Shown: in pieces, positions 2,239 through 42,033 of the stretch | How the letters are laid out: each line of letters opens with the position of its first letter | Numbering within the stretch: position 1 is the first letter of the stretch | Assembly: GCA_965200345.1 (NCBI GenBank) | Contig: OZ241378.1 | Coordinates: 659,231-723,230 of the forward strand | Reading direction: 5' to 3' | DNA from: Candidatus Poribacteria bacterium | GTDB lineage: Bacteria; Poribacteria; WGA-4E; WGA-3G | Length of the DNA: 64,000 nt | Program-made: the position numbers and the translations under genes | Notes under the pieces: model-generated | What the model was told of the DNA's origin: nothing | Seen by the model: the letters and a program-made list of their open reading frames with translations, nothing else | Databases searched by the model: none

Positions 2239-3312
2239 TTACCCGCACGCTGTCTCAAAGACGCGTAGGTGATTTTCGCCGAGTACCTTTCGGATATCGT
2301 CATCGGAATAGCCGCGTTCACTCAGCCCTTCCGCGATTTTGATAAATTCGCTGGCATCCTTGAGTAAATCTCCACCGCCATCAAAATCCGAACCGATACC
2401 AACATGGTCAATGCCAGCGATGTCAATAGCGTAGGCGATATGGTTAAGCAATTGCGCCAGGGGGGGCATTTTTTGCCAACCGTCTATCATAATAAACCCT
2501 GGAACAAAGGTGATTCCGACAACACCGCCATTAGCCGATAAAGCTTTCAATTGTTCGTTGCTCAAGTTCCGTGGGTGCCGGCACAAAGTCTTACAATTGC
2601 TATGAGAGGCAATAACCGGATGCTCCGAGATTTCGAGAACATCCCAAAATCCACGTTCACTGATATGCGAGACATCCACGAGCATTCCTAAGCGGTTCAT
2701 CTCTTTAACCAATGCCATCCCAAATCGGGTCAAGCCGCCCCCCATATCCTCTTCATCATTTCCCGTTGATGCCCATGTATTTAGATTATGCGTTAAGCCA
2801 ATAGAGCGGACACCGAGCAAGTAAAGCGAGCGGAGTATATTCAGGCTCCGTTCGACTGCCTCACTGTTTTCAATGACGAGCACTGCAGCGAGTTTACCCG
2901 CTGCCTTCGCCTCGCGAATATCACTCGCTTTCCGAACGATGCAGATGTCGTCAGCGTTTGCTGTCACTTCTTCGTTGAACCACCCGAACGCATCTAACGC
3001 ATAAGCGAGATGGTTTTTCCAGGCGCGCGTCACGTCAACGGCGAAGAAAGCAGCATCAATACCACCTTGTCGCATTTTTGGGATATTGAGTTGGATACCG
3101 ATGGCTTCCTCTGCCGGTGGCACGGCACCGCGCAGATAGGCGATAGTGCCAACCGGATCCTCTGGATTTCGGGCGTTCTCGTCAGCAAAGCTCACATTAC
3201 CGCGACGGATATGTGCCACGATGGCATCATTGTGCGAGTCAATCACGAGTGCCTGCTCGTGTAACTCAGCAATCCGCTTGTCTATTTGGGTCTGTCTGTT
3301 TTTCTTTTCCAT
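2239..3312 (-). CDS. membrane dipeptidase, peptidase family M19
   Basis: The M19 metal-ligand motifs 'IDSHND', 'GLTHN', 'VDVSH' and 'GSDFDG' are present. Confidence 0.85.
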   Translation of the reverse strand: MEKKNRQTQIDKRIAELHEQALVIDSHNDAIVAHIRRGNVSFADENARNPEDPVGTIAYLRGAVPPAEEAIGIQLNIPKMRQGGIDAAFFAVDVTRAWKNHLAYALDAFGWFNEEVTANADDICIVRKASDIREAKAAGKLAAVLVIENSEAVERSLNILRSLYLLGVRSIGLTHNLNTWASTGNDEEDMGGGLTRFGMALVKEMNRLGMLVDVSHISERGFWDVLEISEHPVIASHSNCKTLCRHPRNLSNEQLKALSANGGVVGITFVPGFIMIDGWQKMPPLAQLLNHIAYAIDIAGIDHVGIGSDFDGGGDLLKDASEFIKIAEGLSERGYSDDDIRKVLGENHLRVFETACG

Positions 3313-20427: not shown

Positions 20428-21075
20428 ATGAATGCAAAGAGTTTAGTCGCTGAATTTGTTGGTACGTTTGCACTGATTTTTATCGGTGCTGGTGCATTGG
20501 CGATCACTCAAGCGAATTTAGTAGGGGTTGCACTCGCTCACGGCTTGGTGATTGTAACGTTTGCGTATGCGTATGGACACATTTCTGGCACACATATCAA
20601 TCCGGCTGTGACGCTTGGCTTGCTAATAGCGGGAGAGATTGAATTTGTCGCAGCGATAGGGTACTGGATTGTGCAATTTCTTGGCGGAATTTTGGGGGCG
20701 GTTGTGCTTAACGCTGTGCTACCGAATCCTGGCGATTTGGGTGTAACAATTTTGGCTGAAGGTGTTACCCCGGTTCAAGGGCTTGTCGTCGAAATCGTGC
20801 TCACTTTCTTCCTCGTCAATACCATTTTCAACACCGCTGTGAGTGGGAAGGCAGGCAATTTCGCTGGACTTGCAATTGGGCTCACACTGGTACTCTGTAT
20901 TCTAATGGGTGGTCCATTAACACGTGCCTCTCTCAATCCGGCACGTACATTGGGACCCGCTATCGTCAGTGGGAATTATGCGGATCTCTGGCTCTACTTC
21001 GTGGGACCGGGCGTCGGTGCGATCCTCGCCGCACTTCTCTATATCGGTGTTTTGAAAGACAAAGAGGAAGCATAG
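20428..21075 (+). CDS. aqpZ: MIP-family aquaporin
   Basis: Two NPA boxes are present ('HINPAVT' and 'SLNPART'). The SD is aaggag. Confidence 0.9.
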   Translation: MNAKSLVAEFVGTFALIFIGAGALAITQANLVGVALAHGLVIVTFAYAYGHISGTHINPAVTLGLLIAGEIEFVAAIGYWIVQFLGGILGAVVLNAVLPNPGDLGVTILAEGVTPVQGLVVEIVLTFFLVNTIFNTAVSGKAGNFAGLAIGLTLVLCILMGGPLTRASLNPARTLGPAIVSGNYADLWLYFVGPGVGAILAALLYIGVLKDKEEA

Positions 21076-21152: not shown

Positions 21153-21587
21153 TTAAGATGTCGTTGTAATCGGAACTTCGGTCGGTTTCGCTGCTTCCGG
21201 TTTCGGAATAGAGAGCGTCAACACACCGTTGCTGTATTCGGCTTTGATATCGTCTGTTGCCACTTCCGATGGGAGCGTGAATCTGCGTTGGAAACTCCCA
21301 TAACGGCGTTCAACTCGACGGTAGTTTTGGGTGTCATCACCTGCATTTTCCTGCCGCTTTTCTCCGCTGAGCGTCAAGAGGTTCTCTTTGACAGAGACGT
21401 GGAGATCGTCTTTTGCGACACCTGGCAATTCGGCGCGAACTTCAAATGTGTCGTCTGTTTCCGAAATATCAACCGAAGGTGCCCAGTTATATGTGCCTGC
21501 GTCGGTTTTTGCGTGCAGTGGTGCAAGGAACGGGCTGTAAAATCTGAATGGGTTTCTTGCCGGTCTGTGTAAAGTCAAATAAGTCAT
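21153..21587 (-). CDS. Hsp20/alpha-crystallin small heat-shock protein (copy 1)
   Basis: The ACD motifs 'ELPGV.KDD..V....N.L.ISGE' and 'FxRxFxLP' are present. The start MTYLT is preceded by AAGGAGAAAAAAAATG. Confidence 0.9.
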   Translation of the reverse strand: MTYLTLHRPARNPFRFYSPFLAPLHAKTDAGTYNWAPSVDISETDDTFEVRAELPGVAKDDLHVSVKENLLTLSGEKRQENAGDDTQNYRRVERRYGSFQRRFTLPSEVATDDIKAEYSNGVLTLSIPKPEAAKPTEVPITTTS

Positions 21588-21679
21588 TTTTTTTCTCCTT
21601 TGGATAACATGCTGTATGTGTGTTGTTGGACATGCCTCGCGTGTTCTATATAACAGACGAGGCACGTCCGAGTCTTAGA

Positions 21680-22132
21680 TTAGGAATTGACTGTAATCGG
21701 AACTTCAGTTGGTTTTGCTGCTTCCGCCTTCGGAATTCCGAGTGTCAAGACCCCATCTTTAAATTCCGCTTTGATAGCATCGGTTTCGATGTGTCTTGGC
21801 AACGTGAAACTTCTCTGGAAGCTGCCGTACCGCCTTTCAACACGGTGGTAGTTTTTGCCATCTGTCTCTGCTTCTTGATGTTTTTCACCTTTGATGGTAA
21901 GCAGATTGTCGGTTACAGAGACGTTAACATCGTTTTCGGATACGCCCGGCAGTTCAGCGCGGATCTCAAATCCGTTTTCCGTTTCAGAAATATCTACGGT
22001 AGGTATCCAAGCGGTGCTGTCCGTATCCGTTCCACCTTCGTGAGAATCGAAGAGATCGCTAAAAACCTTCTCCATCTGGTTGTGGAGGTTAAACAGGTTT
22101 CGCATCGGTCTGCGTGTTGTTAAGTAAGTCAT
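21680..22132 (-). CDS. Hsp20/alpha-crystallin small heat-shock protein (copy 2)
   Basis: It is a paralogue of copy 1 and has the same RBS/start context, AAGGAGAAAAAAAATGACTTA. Confidence 0.9.
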   Translation of the reverse strand: MTYLTTRRPMRNLFNLHNQMEKVFSDLFDSHEGGTDTDSTAWIPTVDISETENGFEIRAELPGVSENDVNVSVTDNLLTIKGEKHQEAETDGKNYHRVERRYGSFQRSFTLPRHIETDAIKAEFKDGVLTLGIPKAEAAKPTEVPITVNS

Positions 22133-22172
22133 TTTTTTTCTCCTTCTGAATTTTGTTTGTGTAAATGTTAGA

Positions 22173-22274
22173 TGCAAGTTCTGTGCCAAACAGGTTGCAA
22201 GTTTCATGCCAATTTTTTCAGAGGCAACCGACGATGTTGCCGTTCTGTTTGTATGTGAAGCAAATTCCGTGCCA
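22173..22274 (-). promoter_or_regulatory. three tandem sigma54 -24/-12 boxes upstream of hsp20 copy 2
   Basis: On the minus strand: TGGCAC-agaac-TTGCA (22188..22173), TGGCAT-gaaac-TTGCA (22211..22196) and TGGCAC-ggaat-TTGCT (22274..22259). Confidence 0.6.
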
Positions 22275-22417
22275 AAGCAGCTTCTCATCTGCTGACTGCC
22301 CACAGCGAGTGGTGTTTCCTAATCGCTGTAGGCGTAGGTCTTGTGCTTACCACGTGGGGACCCCATCTATATAACACGATTCATGGAAGAATAGAGAGGC
22401 GGTGTAGATTTGCCAAA

Positions 22418-22458
22418 TTGACATCACCCTTGCCACTGTGGCACTGAGGGCATGTCAA
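22418..22458. promoter_or_regulatory. 41-bp near-perfect palindrome (possible enhancer-binding-protein site or udk terminator hairpin)
   Basis: The sequence ttgacatcaccct-tgccac-t-gtggca-ctgagggcatgtcaa lies 150-250 bp upstream of the sigma54 boxes. Confidence 0.35.
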
Positions 22459-22496
22459 AATGGCTATGAAGGGGAAGGTACGCTTTCGACGCGCGT

Positions 22497-23150
22497 TTAT
22501 GAAGAAGTTTTGTTTTCCTGAATTCGGGCGCGGATTCCGGCAACGAGTGTGTGCAACGCAACCGGATTTTCGTTTTGGAATGGGATCACCAAATCTGCGT
22601 ACTGTTTGCAAGGTTCGGTGTAGACAGGAAAGTTGGGCAGAACATCGCGCCGGTACCAGTTGATCGCCCACTCCAGATCGCCGCCGCGCCGTGCAACATC
22701 ACGGAGCATCCGTCGCAAGACGCGCTCGTGGGCATCTACATCAAGGAATAGTTTGATGTCCATCAAGTTACGTAAGTCTTCACTCCAGAAGATAAGATGT
22801 CCTTCTACAATGACAACATCGCTGGGTTGAACACTGGTCTGTTCGTCCCCGCGTTGGGCACCGCGGGTGCCCGGGGTCGGCACGTCAATAGCGTCTCTGG
22901 CACGCAGTTTCTTGATGTCTGTAATAAGGGCATCCCATAGAACAGCATCCGGGTGATTCGCGGTAATTACGCGTTCTCGCTCTGCTTCGGAGTATTCTGA
23001 CCAGTCCCGAAAATAAGAATCTTGGTTTAGCACAACGGGCGAAAATTCCGCGAGGGCTTCCGCCAAAGCATTGGCAAATGTCGTTTTCCCAGAAGCGGAG
23101 CCGCCCATAATCCCAACAGTGATAGGTGTGAAAGACTTTTCTTTTGGCAT
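22497..23150 (-). CDS. udk: uridine kinase
   Basis: The P-loop 'GIMGGSASGKTT' and the uridine kinase/PRK family pattern are present. An ATG lies at 23150. Confidence 0.8.
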   Translation of the reverse strand: MPKEKSFTPITVGIMGGSASGKTTFANALAEALAEFSPVVLNQDSYFRDWSEYSEAERERVITANHPDAVLWDALITDIKKLRARDAIDVPTPGTRGAQRGDEQTSVQPSDVVIVEGHLIFWSEDLRNLMDIKLFLDVDAHERVLRRMLRDVARRGGDLEWAINWYRRDVLPNFPVYTEPCKQYADLVIPFQNENPVALHTLVAGIRARIQENKTSS

Positions 23151-23349
23151 AGTTTCTCCGTCTACATTATGTTGTAAGAGTTCAGTTCTGTATGTTAACA
23201 TACATCAGTTCGAGGGTCAAGACTATTGTGGACATTTATCAGAATTATTCAGTTGTCAGCAGTCAGAGGTTTTAAACCTCATCAGCGAAGTTTTACAGAG
23301 TCTGGACTTGGAGGCTGCGACACTTACTGACAACTATTAAAAAAGAAAT

Positions 23350-23378
23350 TTGACTTGCATAAAAAAATGTGTTATTAT
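23350..23378 (+). promoter_or_regulatory. sigma70 promoter TTGACT-17-TATTAT for the aroF leader
   Basis: The hexamers were read directly. The promoter lies about 490 nt upstream of aroF. Confidence 0.55.
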
Positions 23379-23551
23379 ATATTTTAAAGTCAGTGGTAGA
23401 GGATGCTACTGTTCAGAAAGTTTAAAGCGGATAGCGTAGTTTCTCTATTACAATGACTAAACGTTTTTTTTTAATAATGTCTTAGTAGTATAGGATTGTT
23501 TTTGAGATGTTGCGGGCATGTTTTTTGTTGCCCGATTCGGGGAGCTTGATA

Positions 23552-23734
23552 ATGCGAATGCTTGAACGCAATACCATCGCAATACAGATAACCGGTGTAG
23601 GGCTCGTTCAGGACCTTTCTTTCTACGCTTGGGCCTTTTTAGCGCGACTTGCAAGCAGCAGTTTGCTGTTAAAAGGCGCGTTGGCGTTTTATCTGTATCT
23701 GTACTTATATTGGTACGGCAACGATAGGTGGTGA
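23552..23734 (+). CDS. candidate aromatic-rich leader peptide (ends ...AFYLYLYLYWYGNDRW)
   Basis: The SD GGGGAG lies 7 nt before the ATG at 23552. Aromatic codons cluster at 23621..23638 (FYAWAF) and 23687..23731 (F, 5 Y, 2 W). The exact start is uncertain, because there are in-frame ATGs at 23507, 23552 and 23558. Confidence 0.35.
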   Translation: MRMLERNTIAIQITGVGLVQDLSFYAWAFLARLASSSLLLKGALAFYLYLYLYWYGNDRW

Positions 23735-23786
23735 AAGTTCGTAGGTAATGTCTCAATTGTATGATTAACCGATTCCAGTGTCGCCA

Positions 23787-23828
23787 CCCAGCGTTGAAGA
23801 TAAATTCGATGTTGGGTTATTTTTTTTA
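23787..23828 (+). terminator. intrinsic terminator (putative attenuator) just upstream of aroF
   Basis: A 12-bp stem cccagcgttgaa/ttcgatgttggg (three G-U pairs) with a 6-nt loop is followed by TTATTTTTTTT. Confidence 0.55.
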
Positions 23829-23871
23829 ACCGAATTTGATTTGGGATAGATAGAGTTTTTCTGGGAGGTAG

Positions 23872-24897
23872 TTGAAAAGGATGGTAATCGTTACCAAGAC
23901 CGATGCAACACAATCAGATATTGATGCTGTTGTAAAACGGATCGAAAGTGTTGGGTTGAAAGCACAAATCTCAACCGGCGAACGGCACACGGTCATCGGT
24001 GTCATAGGAGATAAAACATTGCTTGGTGATATTCCGATAGAGTCAATGTCCGGTGTTGAACGAACGATGCCGATTACAGCACCGTTCAAGTTGGCGAGCC
24101 GCGAATTTCGGGAAGAACCAACAGTTATTGCAGTGAATGGCACAAAGATTGGTGGAAAGCAGTTGCCTGTTATCGCTGGTCCCTGTGCAGTAGAGAGCAC
24201 AGAACAAATTGTGACTATTGCTCGGTTGGTTCAAAAATCGGGCGCGAGTTTCATCAGAGGCGGTGCGTTTAAGCCGAGAACGGGGCCTTATAGTTTCCAA
24301 GGCTACGGTGAAAGTGCTCTCAAGATGCTAAAAGCAGCGAAAGACGAAACGGGACTCGGTATCGTCACTGAAGTTATGACGCCACACGAGGTGGAACTCG
24401 TCGGGGAATACACAGATATGTTCCAACTCGGCACTCGGAACATGACAAATTTTTACCTGTTACGTGAGGTCGGCCGCGCGCAGAAACCCGTAATTCTCAA
24501 GCGCGGGATGTCCGCGACAATCGAAGAATGGCTGCTTGCTGCCGAATATATTCTCGCAGAAGGAAACCCAGATGTTATCCTATGCGAACGTGGTATTCGT
24601 ACATTTGAAACCCATACACGTAACACACTTGACCTGAACGCGGTGCCCGTCGTTCACGAATTGAGCCACCTTCCAATTGTCGTTGACCCAAGCCACGGCA
24701 CCGGTATTCGGAGTTTGGTGTGTGATATGACGAAGGCATCTGTCGCTGCAGGCGCCGATGGACTGTTACTTGAGGTACATCATGATCCTGATCATTCAAT
24801 GACAGGAGATGGGGCACAATCGTTGTTCCCAGATCAATTTGAGACGCTCATGCAGGAACTGAAACCTATTGCGATCGCTGTCGGTCGTGAAATGTAA
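23872..24897 (+). CDS. aroF: 3-deoxy-7-phosphoheptulonate (DAHP) synthase, type I-beta with N-terminal ferredoxin-like/ACT regulatory domain
   Basis: The layout resembles Thermotoga-type DAHPS: an N-terminal regulatory domain followed by 'VIAGPCAVES', 'KPRT' and 'VDPSH'. The start is TTG 23872 or ATG 23881. Confidence 0.9.
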   Translation: MKRMVIVTKTDATQSDIDAVVKRIESVGLKAQISTGERHTVIGVIGDKTLLGDIPIESMSGVERTMPITAPFKLASREFREEPTVIAVNGTKIGGKQLPVIAGPCAVESTEQIVTIARLVQKSGASFIRGGAFKPRTGPYSFQGYGESALKMLKAAKDETGLGIVTEVMTPHEVELVGEYTDMFQLGTRNMTNFYLLREVGRAQKPVILKRGMSATIEEWLLAAEYILAEGNPDVILCERGIRTFETHTRNTLDLNAVPVVHELSHLPIVVDPSHGTGIRSLVCDMTKASVAAGADGLLLEVHHDPDHSMTGDGAQSLFPDQFETLMQELKPIAIAVGREM

Positions 24898-25072
24898 TTT
24901 TTTAACGATTGAGTTTTTGCTCATTTTTTGCCGATGGCAAAAAATGGTTTTCGATGAAGTTGGCGGTGTTGGTTATGTTATGTTGTCTGATGCTTTTAAA
25001 CTTGAGGGTAACCTTTTGATAGCATCAGACTTCCGTCGTAACTTGCAAACTTTATCTATCCGTGATTAAAAT

Positions 25073-26641
25073 TTGGAGGAAAGAGCCTTGGACGATTTTG
25101 AAACCAACCAGCAGAAAGTCTATATTTTTGATACAACGCTCCGTGATGCCGAGCAGACCCCCGGTGCTGCTCTGGGTATCCAGGAAAAACTCGAAATTGC
25201 CAAGCACCTCGCCAAATTAAATGTTGATGTCATTGAAGCCGGATTCCCCATCTCCTCACCGGGCGATTTCGACGCTGTCAAACGGATAGCAAATGAGGTT
25301 GAAGGTCCGGAAATTTGCGCGCTCTCTCGCGTTGTAGAGAAAGACATTACTGCGGCATGGAAAGCGATTGAGGACGCGCCGCGCGCCCGTATCCACACGT
25401 TTGTCGGTACATCACCTATCCACATGGGACGTATCACGCGAACGACACCGGAAGATACACTCCGGATGGCAACGGATGCTGTCGCCTATGCTAAGCGTCT
25501 CTGTGAAGGACACGCAGATGCGAATGTGGAATTCTCGCCGATGGACGCGGGACGGACAGAATTGGCGTTCCTTTATGAGGTCGTTGAAGCAACTATCGCC
25601 GCAGGCGCGACCGTCGTCAATATCCCGGAAACCGTCGGGTGGACAGTCCCAACGGAATTTGGCGACCTGATTAAAGGCATCATGGAAAATGTCCCGAACG
25701 TTGCCGATGCCATTATCAGTGTTCACTGTCATAACGACCTCGGCTTGGCGGTGGCGAACAGTCTGATCGCGATTGAGCAAGGCGCGCGTCAGGTAGAATG
25801 TACAATCAACGGACTCGGGGAACGTGCAGGGAACACCTCGCTTGAAGAGGTCGTCATGGCAATCCGAACTCGGCGAGACTATTTCAAAGAATATTACACC
25901 GAGATTAACGCAAAAGAGATCGTCCCGATTAGTCGGCGTGTCAGCCGAACGATGGGTATCTCTGTGCAACCGAACAAAGCGATTGTCGGCGCGAACGCCT
26001 TCGCACACAGTTCGGGTATCCATCAGGACGGGATCATCAAATCACGAGTAACGTTTGAAATCATTGATCCGAAAGAGATCGGTTGGAAAGAGAGTCAACT
26101 CATCCTCAGTCCTCGGTCGGGACGCAACGCACTCAGACACCGACTCAGCGAACTCGGCTACGAAGTGGACGCTGAACAGTTAGACAAAGTCTATGAAAGA
26201 TTCCTGAGGGTCGCTGATAAAAAGAAAGCGGTGCAGGATGCTGACCTTGAGGCGATCATGAGCGATGAGATTCGCGCAATCCCTGCTGTCTTTGAACTTG
26301 ATTATATTCAAGTCGTCAGCGGAACGAAAATTTCACCGACAACAACAGTCGGAATTCGGACGGAAGACGGCGTTGTTGAAAAAGCGTCAACTGGTGATGG
26401 ACCTGTTGATGCTGCGTTTAAGGCGATTGGTCAGGTTGTTGATATTCAACTGAATCTCATTGACTATCAGATCCGTTCTGTAACCGAAGGCGAAGACGCT
26501 ATCGGTGAAGTCTCATTGAAGGTACAGGATAATGGACACATCATCACCGGACACGGTGCCAGCACAGACATCATCGAAGCGAGTGCGCGTGCATACATCC
26601 ACGCTGTTAACAAGTTAATCCAGATCCGGTCTGAAGGGTAA
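25073..26641 (+). CDS. leuA: 2-isopropylmalate synthase
   Basis: 'FDTTLRDAEQ', 'HCHNDLGLAVANS' and a C-terminal LeuA dimerisation domain are present. The start is TTG after the SD ggagga. Confidence 0.9.
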   Translation: MEERALDDFETNQQKVYIFDTTLRDAEQTPGAALGIQEKLEIAKHLAKLNVDVIEAGFPISSPGDFDAVKRIANEVEGPEICALSRVVEKDITAAWKAIEDAPRARIHTFVGTSPIHMGRITRTTPEDTLRMATDAVAYAKRLCEGHADANVEFSPMDAGRTELAFLYEVVEATIAAGATVVNIPETVGWTVPTEFGDLIKGIMENVPNVADAIISVHCHNDLGLAVANSLIAIEQGARQVECTINGLGERAGNTSLEEVVMAIRTRRDYFKEYYTEINAKEIVPISRRVSRTMGISVQPNKAIVGANAFAHSSGIHQDGIIKSRVTFEIIDPKEIGWKESQLILSPRSGRNALRHRLSELGYEVDAEQLDKVYERFLRVADKKKAVQDADLEAIMSDEIRAIPAVFELDYIQVVSGTKISPTTTVGIRTEDGVVEKASTGDGPVDAAFKAIGQVVDIQLNLIDYQIRSVTEGEDAIGEVSLKVQDNGHIITGHGASTDIIEASARAYIHAVNKLIQIRSEG

Positions 26642-26781
26642 GAGCGTCGGGATTTACGCAAAGGCATTTGCTGGCGAGGTTTCAACCTCGCCAGCGGCGC
26701 GTTATGGAAAGGTTGCTTAAAACGGGATAAATTTTGTCAACGATAATCTATCTTGACACGAGTTTTTGTGGGGGAAATTCA

Positions 26782-27222
26782 ATGTTGAGAACATCGTTCG
26801 TATACATATTAGTCATTGTGTCTTTCATTTCCATAGGATGTGGAAAGATAGGTGTATCTCAACGAGATACAAGCGATCCAAATGTTACCCTGTCTTTCAC
26901 AGAGGTATTAAACGATCCGGAAACGTACATAGATAAGGTATTAACCTTTGAGGCAGTTGTAAAGCGCACACGTTATGGAAGTGATATAGAGTTATACACT
27001 AACAAGAAGCTTAGACAATTTTCCATTACCACGCATGGTGCTGATATTCATAGCATAGATGAAAATGGCGAGGAAGTGGAAATTTTTCCGAATGAGAAAT
27101 ATAGATTCAAATGTAGGATTTACGAGATTAAGATTGATCAGCACGGTATATGGGATATTCAAGCTGAATTTATTGTTTCAGATGAAAAGCATATATTGCA
27201 TCAACCGGAACTTGTGAACTAA
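26782..27222 (+). CDS. hypothetical lipoprotein (AT-rich orphan)
   Basis: The lipobox 'FISIGCGK' is present. I recognise no family. Confidence 0.5.
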   Translation: MLRTSFVYILVIVSFISIGCGKIGVSQRDTSDPNVTLSFTEVLNDPETYIDKVLTFEAVVKRTRYGSDIELYTNKKLRQFSITTHGADIHSIDENGEEVEIFPNEKYRFKCRIYEIKIDQHGIWDIQAEFIVSDEKHILHQPELVN

Positions 27223-27254: not shown

Positions 27255-27290
27255 AGCCCTGTCGGATGCTCCAACAGGGCTTTTTTTTTA
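27255..27290. terminator. bidirectional intrinsic terminator
   Basis: The stem AGCCCTGT/ACAGGGCT is followed by T9. It lies between convergent genes. Confidence 0.75.
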
Positions 27291-27307
27291 CTGTATTCTA
27301 TGGAAAA

Positions 27308-28795
27308 TTACCAATCCTCAACCAGTTGCACCAATAACCGCACGCCGTAGCCGGACGCCCCTTCAGGGATATACGTAGAGCCTTTCATCCCCCAAGCAGT
27401 GCCAGCGATGTCGAGGTGTACCCACGGGTAGCCTTCCGCGAACTTCTTCAAAAACGCGCCCCCGGCAATCGTGCCAGCCGTGCCGTCGCCTATGTTCTGC
27501 ACATCTGCGACTTTGCTTTTGACCCCTTCATCGTAATCGTCCCAAAGTGGTAATTCCCAAACGCGTTCATGCGTCTTTACGGCTGCCGATTTCACTTTCG
27601 CCATGAGTTCTGGATCTGTCCCCAGTGCCCCCGCTGCGATATGTCCTAAAGTACCGATCACAGCACCGGTGAGCGTGGCTAAGTCGATAACGCCTTTGGG
27701 GTTATACTGTGCCGTCCATCCGAGCGCATCTGCCAATACCAAACGTCCCTCAGCATCGGTGTTAAGAATCTCAATCGTTTTGCCGCCATAAGAGGTGACG
27801 ACATCGCCGGGCTTAACCGCAGTGCCACTCGGCATATTTTCGGTCGCGGCAACTAAGCCGATGACACGCACATTCGGTTTGAGTTGACCGATGACTTGCA
27901 TCGCGCCGATTACAGCAGCAGCACCCGACATGTCGTGTTTCATCTCATGCATACCGCTTCCGCCTTTGATCGAGATCCCGCCTGTGTCAAAGGTAATCCC
28001 TTTTCCAACAAGCACGACAGTATCTTGTCCTTCACCATCAGGCGTGTATTCGAGAATAATAAAGCGCGGCTCTTCAGCACTCCCTTGCGCGACGGCAAGG
28101 AGTGTACGGAACCCTTTTTCTTCGAGGGTGGCTTTGTCAAAAATTTCGCAACCGAGTCCTGTTGTCTCTGCTACCGCTTCTGCCTTTTCAGCGAGTTGCG
28201 TCGGCGTGAGATAATTTGCGGGTTGGTTGCTCAAATCACGGGCGAGCAGTGTACCGTTAGCGATTACTTCTCCGCGCTGGGCTGCTGCTTCTACCGTGGC
28301 CTGACTGTGATCACTTTCAGTTAAGAATGTGATGGATTCAAGTTTTTTCTTTTCGTCTTCATCATCGTTTCCGGTTTTGTGTTCATCGAACTGATAGAGT
28401 GCGAGCAAGGAGGCTTCCGCTGCGGCTTGTATCATTTCAGGGGTGGCTTCGTTTGGCATCGGAACAGCGGCGTTTCTTAAACCCATATCCCGGATCGTCC
28501 GCACGGCGTGGCCGGCTGTCTGGCGGACTTTTTCGGTAGTCAGGTCGTGATACTCACCCAAACCTACCAGTAGCACGCGAGGCGCGGTTATCGCACCGTT
28601 TGTATAGAGCCAACTCGTCGTTTTCAACTTGCCTGTGAAATCGCCGAGGTTCATTCTTTCGCGAATGCGTCCACCGAGTGCTTGATCTATAGTTTGAAGT
28701 GGAGCACTATAGAAATCCGGATTCTCCAGCACACCGATGGCAATCACATCGCTCTGTTCTTGGTTAAACCCACCCGTTTTGACAGTAATATTCAT
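27308..28795 (-). CDS. pepA: leucyl aminopeptidase, family M17
   Basis: 'NTDAEGRLVLAD' and 'VGKGITFDTGG' are present. Confidence 0.9.
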   Translation of the reverse strand: MNITVKTGGFNQEQSDVIAIGVLENPDFYSAPLQTIDQALGGRIRERMNLGDFTGKLKTTSWLYTNGAITAPRVLLVGLGEYHDLTTEKVRQTAGHAVRTIRDMGLRNAAVPMPNEATPEMIQAAAEASLLALYQFDEHKTGNDDEDEKKKLESITFLTESDHSQATVEAAAQRGEVIANGTLLARDLSNQPANYLTPTQLAEKAEAVAETTGLGCEIFDKATLEEKGFRTLLAVAQGSAEEPRFIILEYTPDGEGQDTVVLVGKGITFDTGGISIKGGSGMHEMKHDMSGAAAVIGAMQVIGQLKPNVRVIGLVAATENMPSGTAVKPGDVVTSYGGKTIEILNTDAEGRLVLADALGWTAQYNPKGVIDLATLTGAVIGTLGHIAAGALGTDPELMAKVKSAAVKTHERVWELPLWDDYDEGVKSKVADVQNIGDGTAGTIAGGAFLKKFAEGYPWVHLDIAGTAWGMKGSTYIPEGASGYGVRLLVQLVEDW

Positions 28796-41846: not shown

Positions 41847-42033
41847 GAATTGCTTGAAGCAGCAAATATTGAAGTTGTAGGTATTTCTTATTAATATCAA
41901 AGGGTGTGTTGACAGCCAAAGATTGTGATTTATCAAAGTCAAAAGCGTAATAGTTTACAATATCGTAACAACCTAAGCAAAAACCGTTTTTCGACAACGG
42001 AGAAAAACGAGCAAAAACTTAATAGTTAAAAAT

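Follow-up and report, generated by a model that had tools for sequence, protein, structure and literature searches.

The 64,000-nucleotide (nt) stretch of Candidatus Poribacteria DNA analysed here (the window) carries a long transcribed leader upstream of aroF, the gene for a type I-beta DAHP synthase. This leader most probably controls an aroF-leuA operon as a transcription attenuator of the ribosome-mediated (leader-peptide) type. An initial annotation of the window had proposed attenuation through a leader peptide rich in aromatic codons, and this reading is supported because the leader open reading frame (ORF) and the terminator are conserved, the alternative RNA pairing covaries, transcripts have been mapped and no Rfam family matches the leader. 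The genomes closest to the window were all Candidatus Poribacteria, sponge symbionts. Our comparison set comprised 39 Poribacteria loci fetched through aroF, 38 of which had a recognisably homologous leader; as 38 diverged genomes share the entire arrangement, we take it to be more than chance.

Promoter, transcripts and reading frame of the leader

The consensus promoter named in the initial annotation, TTGACT-17-TATTAT, is present with 10 of 12 matches and an extended -10 element (TGtTATTAT, with the TG at 23370-71), and is the top scorer among nine promoter-like sites in 22000-26000 (Table 1). Of 36 loci scanned, 34 had a TTGAC(T/A)...TAT(T/C/A)AT promoter at the equivalent position; the exceptions were L003, which is cut by a contig end, and L023, which has TTGACA...TAATAT. 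As transcript evidence, we used assembled Logan contigs from sponge metatranscriptomes. Four metatranscriptomes holding the window strain (X1-X4) each gave one contig that started at 23399-23404, with two of the starts joined to adapter sequence, and that crossed the leader, aroF and leuA to end between 26029 and 27554. A high-depth contig of a related strain (X7) started at the equivalent of 23386, directly after adapter plus GGG, read here as the template-switch signature at an RNA 5' end. DNA contigs from the same study ran uninterrupted across 23170-23400, which identifies the RNA boundary as a transcript end rather than an assembly artefact. The mapped 5' end lies 7-8 nt past the -10 box. 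Together, the starts and the spanning contigs indicate that the promoter is used, that the leader measures about 496 nt from the mapped 5' end and that aroF and leuA are co-transcribed; transcripts thus begin at the promoter predicted earlier and include aroF. Two weak hints of premature termination came from other runs: in the low-coverage run X5, the sole contig assembled here covered 23485-23778, wholly within the leader, and in X16 the summed depth over the leader exceeded that over aroF. A hairpin at 23388-23458 followed by a T9 run was considered as a promoter-proximal terminator or small RNA and rejected: RNA contigs pass through it, the hairpin is not conserved, and the T-run in relatives is part of a conserved sequence block.

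Within the leader lies a 60-codon ORF preceded by a Shine-Dalgarno (SD) sequence, and in relatives the corresponding ATG follows a purine-rich (G/T/C)AGGAA-like site at a distance of 7-10 nt. The terminal part reads ...AFYLYLYLYWYGNDRW-UGA; its last 17 codons, LAFYLYLYLYWYGNDRW, hold one Phe, five Tyr and two Trp, and both this count and the SD spacing are as first annotated. We found 54 homologous predicted peptides, the few with a source name being Candidatus Poribacteria, and the leader peptide had no Pfam or NCBIfam match. The frame was open in all 38 loci, in 12 lengths from 141 to 255 nt that were all multiples of 3; the other two frames contained 63 and 72 stops (36 loci counted). Variation over the whole ORF had no codon periodicity (mean column entropy 0.88/0.83/0.87 at positions 1/2/3), and the middle of the peptide was highly variable, with tandem duplications of 36 nt and, in L004, the loss of 14 codons. 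Without periodicity and with so plastic a middle, the peptide as a whole is not selected as a protein would be; selection bears only on its frame and regulatory codons. The duplications are in-frame copies, one to three extra, of a 36-nt unit encoding A(R/Q)LASKNLLLKS; they occur in L011 (2560-2814) and in proteins P0003, P0005, P0013, P0020, P0026, P0027 and P0042. They preserve the frame and so show the middle of the peptide to be expendable.

The codon run near the 3' end has a different character. In 35-38 of 38 loci, its Tyr columns read TAT or TAC or, in a more distant clade, the Phe codons TTT/TTC; the alternate columns are mostly Leu, encoded by CTG/CTC/CTT/CTA/TTA/TTG, first-position changes included. 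Strains carry 3 to 6 Tyr-Leu (YL) units. In the near clade there are 4-6 Tyr codons; the far clade has 2-3 Tyr plus 2-4 Phe. Over the last 20 codons, aromatic residues averaged 7.4 (37%) and Leu 4.5 (22%), as compared with 8.1% and 9.6% in the long ORFs of the window. The peptide YLYLYLYWY is one of only two places with at least five Tyr in nine residues in a six-frame translation of the window. Conservation of the aromatic-codon ORF and of the terminator in relatives had been put forward as a check on the attenuator, and both were conserved across the 38 loci.

Terminator, antiterminator and proposed mechanism

The predicted intrinsic terminator has 5 G-C pairs among the 13 of its stem, followed by TATTTTTTTT to position 23827 (U8). 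Folded alone, it reached -18.7 kcal/mol (z = -6.65 against shuffles). Its stem was paired in 98.8% of alignment cells over 38 sequences, compared with 26-50% in slid controls, and the 3' arm GAUGUUGGG together with the U-run was nearly invariant among relatives. A terminator ahead of aroF had been called correctly, although not its dimensions: the stem has 13 bp rather than 12, and the end of the U-run lies 52-53 nt from the aroF ATG at 23881 rather than about 45. The spacer between terminator and aroF was not conserved, varying from ~50 to ~280 nt with inserted repeats. In four loci (L005, L009, L014 and L018), one to three tandem copies of a ~45-nt hairpin-containing repeat, TTTCGGTGCAGCTTGCAAACCGAAAACTTGCTATTAAGAAGG, separate the attenuator U-run from the aroF ribosome-binding site; no copy is present in the window.

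An alternative helix competes for the terminator 5' arm. In it, GGUGGUGA at 23727-34 pairs with UCGCCACC at 23781-88 and, past a 3x3 internal loop, CAACG at 23719-23 pairs with CGUUG at 23792-96, so that 11 of the 13 nt of the terminator 5' arm are sequestered. The initial annotation had proposed a pairing of the stop-codon region. That pairing is real, with a shifted position (TCGCCACCC is at 23781-23789, not 23780-23788, and 8 of the 9 pairs form), and the helix proved to be longer than described, conserved and covarying. It was paired in 97.6% of alignment cells, compared with 31-76% for slid partners. At alignment pair 40:128, AU occurred in 19, GC in 14 and GU in 3 sequences, and the U-to-C change in the shared segment 3 is compatible with both of its partners, the terminator G included. 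The antiterminator region 23717-23798 folded at -23.4 kcal/mol, and a transcript truncated before segment 4 folded into a small hairpin plus the complete antiterminator. Further upstream, a segment 1:2 hairpin (-11.6 kcal/mol, z = -3.5) kept its upper 6 bp in most of the near clade; its lower stem was poorly conserved.

From these parts we infer that the leader is translated and that the position and timing of a stalled ribosome choose between the two helices. Transcription would start at about 23385 from the strong promoter, and a ribosome would load at the SD and the ATG at 23552 to read the 60-codon leader. If charged tRNA-Tyr (probably also tRNA-Phe or tRNA-Trp, possibly tRNA-Leu) were scarce, the ribosome would stall early in the Y-L-Y-L-Y run, at 23690-23706, leaving segment 2 (23719-23734) free. 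Segment 2 would then pair with segment 3 (23781-23796) once this is made, locking the terminator 5' arm and letting polymerase continue into aroF and leuA. With fast reading, the ribosome would instead cover the UGA in segment 2, segment 3 would pair with segment 4 (23805-23817), and transcription would stop at about 23827. The conserved upper hairpin in the codon run may serve as a pause site that couples ribosome and polymerase. In an untranslated leader, the antiterminator would probably form and the default would be ON, as nothing sequesters segment 2 without translation; this predicted read-through, with segment 2 left free by the 1:2 hairpin, contrasts with E. coli trp, which super-attenuates when untranslated.

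Table 1 Coordinates of the aroF leader, its regulatory elements and the downstream genes in the window
Feature	Positions	Strand	Description
Sigma-70-type promoter	23350..23378	+	TTGACT 23350-23355, 17-nt spacer, TATTAT 23373-23378; preceded by an A-rich stretch
Mapped RNA 5' ends	23384..23404	+	metatranscriptome contig starts; transcription start ~23385
Conserved 5'-leader block	23457..23484	+	CTAAACGTTTTT...AAYAACGTCTTA; columns 101-129 of alignment A3, nearly invariant
Shine-Dalgarno sequence of leader ORF	23539..23544	+	GGGGAG, 7 nt before ATG 23552
Leader ORF	23552..23734	+	60 codons, MRMLERNTIAIQITGVGLVQDLSFYAWAFLARLASSSLLLKGALAFYLYLYLYWYGNDRW-stop; ends YLYLYLYWYGNDRW-stop; TGA 23732-23734
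Regulatory codon run F-Y-L-Y-L-Y-L-Y-W-Y	23687..23716	+	TTT TAT CTG TAT CTG TAC TTA TAT TGG TAC
Segment 1:2 hairpin, candidate pause hairpin	23690..23726	+	upper stem CUGUAC 23699-23704 with GUACGG 23713-23718
Antiterminator 5' strand (segment 2)	23719..23734	+	CAACG + GGUGGUGA; includes last codons and UGA
Antiterminator 3' strand (segment 3)	23781..23796	+	UCGCCACC + CGUUG; overlaps terminator 5' arm from 23786
Predicted intrinsic terminator	23786..23827	+	13-bp stem 23786-23798/23805-23817, 6-nt loop, UAUUUUUUUU
aroF	23881..24897	+	type I-beta DAHP synthase; NF006421 480 bits, TIGR01361 387 bits
leuA	25073..26641	+	2-isopropylmalate synthase; family matches; shares RNA contigs with aroF
Hypothetical 162-aa ORF	26734..27222	+	possible last gene of the transcription unit

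Several observations weigh against this mechanism. When equilibrium folding was simulated with a 28-nt ribosome mask stepped along the leader ORF, the terminator won at every ribosome position (P ~1); when the masked transcript was truncated before segment 4, segment 3 often paired with far-upstream RNA. Since the terminator wins wherever the ribosome stands, the switch must be kinetic, and as an equilibrium simulation is uninformative for a kinetic switch, we relied on isolated-helix energies and on conservation. The 3x3 internal loop of the antiterminator and two free A's of the terminator arm remain unpaired, which means that segment 4 could invade the antiterminator. The conserved part of the segment 1:2 hairpin does not overlap segment 2 and so does not sequester it. 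Covariation amounts to one pair, probably a single change in the tree; it is thin because the region is so conserved. Contig depth was flat, so that neither attenuation nor 3' ends at the U-run can be read from the contigs. At 46-84 codons across loci, the leaders are longer than the 14-32 codons of textbook cases. Finally, the attenuation model accounts for neither the conserved N-terminus MRTLERNT nor the conserved block at 23457-23484.

Alternative explanations

That block bears on a reading in which an RNA-binding protein, uncharged tRNA or metabolite binds the 5' leader in trans and sets the switch, with the ORF incidental or auxiliary. The block, CTAAACGTTTTT-N-AAYAACGTCTTA, is a strongly conserved 28 nt containing two AACGTYTT direct repeats ~20 nt apart. 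It has no role in the attenuation model and may bind a protein or provide a second regulatory input; the length of the leader (496 nt) also fits such a factor, as does GGUGGU, which we take to resemble part of the T-box core. We nevertheless consider a trans-acting switch improbable. Rfam models found no riboswitch, T-box or leader family (Trp, Phe, His, Leu, Thr) in the leader region 22900-24200 even at E <= 10, and none in the whole window at gathering score; the scans returned only two noise matches, to archaeal snoRNAs. The initial annotation had named membership of a known riboswitch or T-box class as an alternative outcome, and none emerged from these scans. RNAalifold on the 5' leader of 22 loci gave no consensus structure (-0.48 kcal/mol), and L004 lacks the block yet keeps the ORF, antiterminator and terminator. 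A trans factor would also leave the conservation of reading frame and Tyr codons unexplained.

Very unlikely, in our estimate, is a real small (membrane) protein that has its own terminator, with aroF expressed by constitutive read-through or from its own promoter. In its favour, the encoded peptide is hydrophobic and, with 60 aa, rather long for a leader; it recurs in more than 50 predicted peptides, and both its N-terminal MRTLERNT and an internal W are conserved. However, the variation described above, without codon periodicity and with duplications and the L004 deletion in a highly variable middle, is unlike that of a protein, and the peptide has no family match. The stop codon of the ORF lies within a helix complementary to the terminator arm; the spacer between terminator and aroF (~50 to ~280 nt) is not conserved, and RNA contigs run continuously from the leader into aroF.

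Also very unlikely is a TnaC-like arrest peptide, in which a C-terminal (G/S)xxRW-stop would arrest the ribosome on the UGA with a free aromatic amino acid bound and so set the fold: R-W-UGA is indeed almost invariant (AGG in 34 of 38, TGG in 36 of 38) and the stop codon lies inside the switch helix, but this invariance is explained by the same nucleotides, AGGUGGUGA, being needed to pair with UCACCACC; the stop is shifted by -3 to +12 nt in L023, L027, L034, L035 and L037 with the helices intact; a stall at the stop would favour termination, so that a high level of aromatic amino acid represses, which the codon-run model already provides; and the terminator here is intrinsic, whereas TnaC works through Rho-dependent termination.

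Probable signals, operon context and related systems

For the ribosome-mediated attenuator, Tyr is the best-supported signal, because the Tyr codon columns are the most conserved and the enzyme has a ferredoxin-like regulatory domain at its N-terminus (PF18152 at residues 1-66, plus PF00793). In the DAHP synthase of Thermotoga maritima, this domain mediates feedback inhibition by Tyr and Phe. Phe and Trp codons are also enriched, and these amino acids are probably sensed too. A second signal from Leu, suggested by the codon pattern and by aroF-leuA synteny, is possible and put forward only tentatively; it is less certain than Tyr, as V, M, F, P and W also occur in the Leu columns, which counts against Leu sensing. 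Co-transcription of aroF with leuA, which the initial annotation did not mention, gives the alternating Leu codons a possible meaning. We can therefore picture, as a doubtful extension, a two-pathway multivalent attenuator in which a (UAY-YUR)n repeat would register the charging state of both tRNA-Tyr and tRNA-Leu and co-regulate aroF and leuA, with AACGTYTT as a second input. The YL repeat number (3-6) plausibly changes by slippage, which would tune sensitivity.

The order aroF-leuA, with leuA downstream, was kept in all 39 Poribacteria loci, over spacers of ~7 to ~330 nt. RNA contigs X1, X2 and X4 extended to 27289-27554, and X3 broke at 26630. The ORF that follows leuA (Table 1) had no match in family searches and was found in only some relatives. 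The 175-nt aroF-leuA spacer of the window (24898-25072) is an insertion absent from many strains: in RNA contigs of other strains, 24897 is directly followed by 25073, and the spacer of L011 is 7 nt. The first 64 nt of the window's spacer, which include a terminator-like hairpin at 24921-24947, recur with 80% identity at 41969-42032 (minus strand), suggesting a small repeated element. The linkage of aroF and leuA recurs outside Poribacteria in L056 and L062 (Bacteroidota, Ignavibacteriota; leuA at 49% identity), where a second LeuA-like gene precedes aroF. Upstream of the leader, a divergent uridine-kinase-like gene occupies 22497-23201 (minus), and just upstream of it lie two tandem Hsp20-like ORFs (170 and 207 aa) and one aquaporin-like ORF (21153-22303, minus; 20428-21075, plus), names that come from the translations only.

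Aromatic runs in short ORFs were also seen 100-170 nt upstream of the type I-beta aroF match in seven loci of other phyla (L040, L046, L057, L061, L068, L075 and L080), among them Acidobacteriota, Bryobacterales and Methylomirabilota. Examples are MNSRFYFYYFGAFTTGP, MRFVASNSFRFWFWYGT, ..SFYWFRFWY.. and ..GGFFSFYFGE.., with runs such as FYFYYF, FRFWFWY and FFSFYF. In every locus whose upstream region was folded, which means all of them except L068, a strong GC-rich hairpin with a U-run follows the ORF. Together with the Poribacteria leader, these loci suggest a widespread, unannotated 'aro leader' attenuator class outside Rfam coverage. In support of the two-pathway reading, codon content and operon structure are correlated: Poribacteria combine aroF-leuA with a Tyr/Leu run, and the seven other loci have neither a downstream leuA nor Leu in the run. 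The most divergent Poribacteria locus, L036 from a deep-sea metagenome-assembled genome, has an aroF that is 75% identical and an unrelated leader. At 2800-3000 it carries its own consensus promoter, a 34-codon ORF with no clear aromatic run and a perfect 18-bp terminator; a near-copy of the terminator 3' arm (UCGAUGAUAGGCG) lies upstream, inside the ORF, as an antiterminator.

In the order of its parts, the Poribacteria leader resembles the enterobacterial attenuators trpL, pheL, hisL, leuL, thrL and ilvL: a promoter, an SD with a short ORF, a run of end-product codons near the 3' end, a stop next to or inside segment 2, mutually exclusive 2:3 and 3:4 helices, and a U-run before the first biosynthetic gene. 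It is alike in working without being a member of those Rfam sequence families, and it differs in its length (46-84 codons compared with 14-32) and in its regulatory codons, which alternate as Y-L-Y-L where the enterobacterial ones are consecutive. Interspersed codons are known from the thr operon (Thr and Ile) and ilvGMEDA (Leu, Val and Ile), where starvation for any of the amino acids relieves termination. Those multivalent attenuators serve the amino acids of one branched pathway, whereas Tyr and Leu here would belong to two unrelated pathways, each represented by its entry enzyme. T-box leaders of Firmicutes likewise lie upstream of aro genes and report tRNA charging through a terminator/antiterminator choice, but they bind tRNA directly rather than through a ribosome; the Poribacteria leader has no specifier loop or T-box motif and did not match RF00230.

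Functionally closest is the aroR-aroF system of Corynebacterium glutamicum, an aromatic-codon leader before a DAHP synthase gene. There, the short aroR leader, with a single Phe-Tyr-Phe, controls aroF by ribosome stalling and is reported to respond to Phe and not to Tyr (Mentz 2013, PMC4046766; Neshat 2014, via the summary in PMC11802643). C. glutamicum leuA has a separate Leu leader, whereas in Poribacteria one Tyr-dominated, Leu-interleaved leader precedes aroF-leuA. The initial annotation knew of no description of a Tyr-dominated leader before a DAHP synthase gene, and this holds in part: a leader before such a gene is known in C. glutamicum, and we found no Tyr-codon leader and no Poribacteria attenuator in the literature searched. 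A comparative study of Actinobacteria reported no Tyr or Phe attenuators (PMC1262725).

The kind of mechanism is known, from trp and pheA of E. coli and from aroR-aroF of C. glutamicum, and the Poribacteria example is undescribed. As this is a textbook mechanism, the conceptual gain is modest; the variant features are the long leader, the alternating Tyr/Leu repeat and an operon that spans two pathways. The finding would extend leader-peptide attenuation of DAHP synthase past Corynebacterium and provides a concrete candidate regulatory element for Poribacteria, an uncultivated phylum of sponge symbionts. If the alternating Tyr and Leu codons before aroF-leuA do act as proposed, this would be an unusual case of a single attenuator integrating two unrelated amino-acid pathways. 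In symbionts, such a leader may also serve as a marker of the amino acids that the bacterium still senses and makes.

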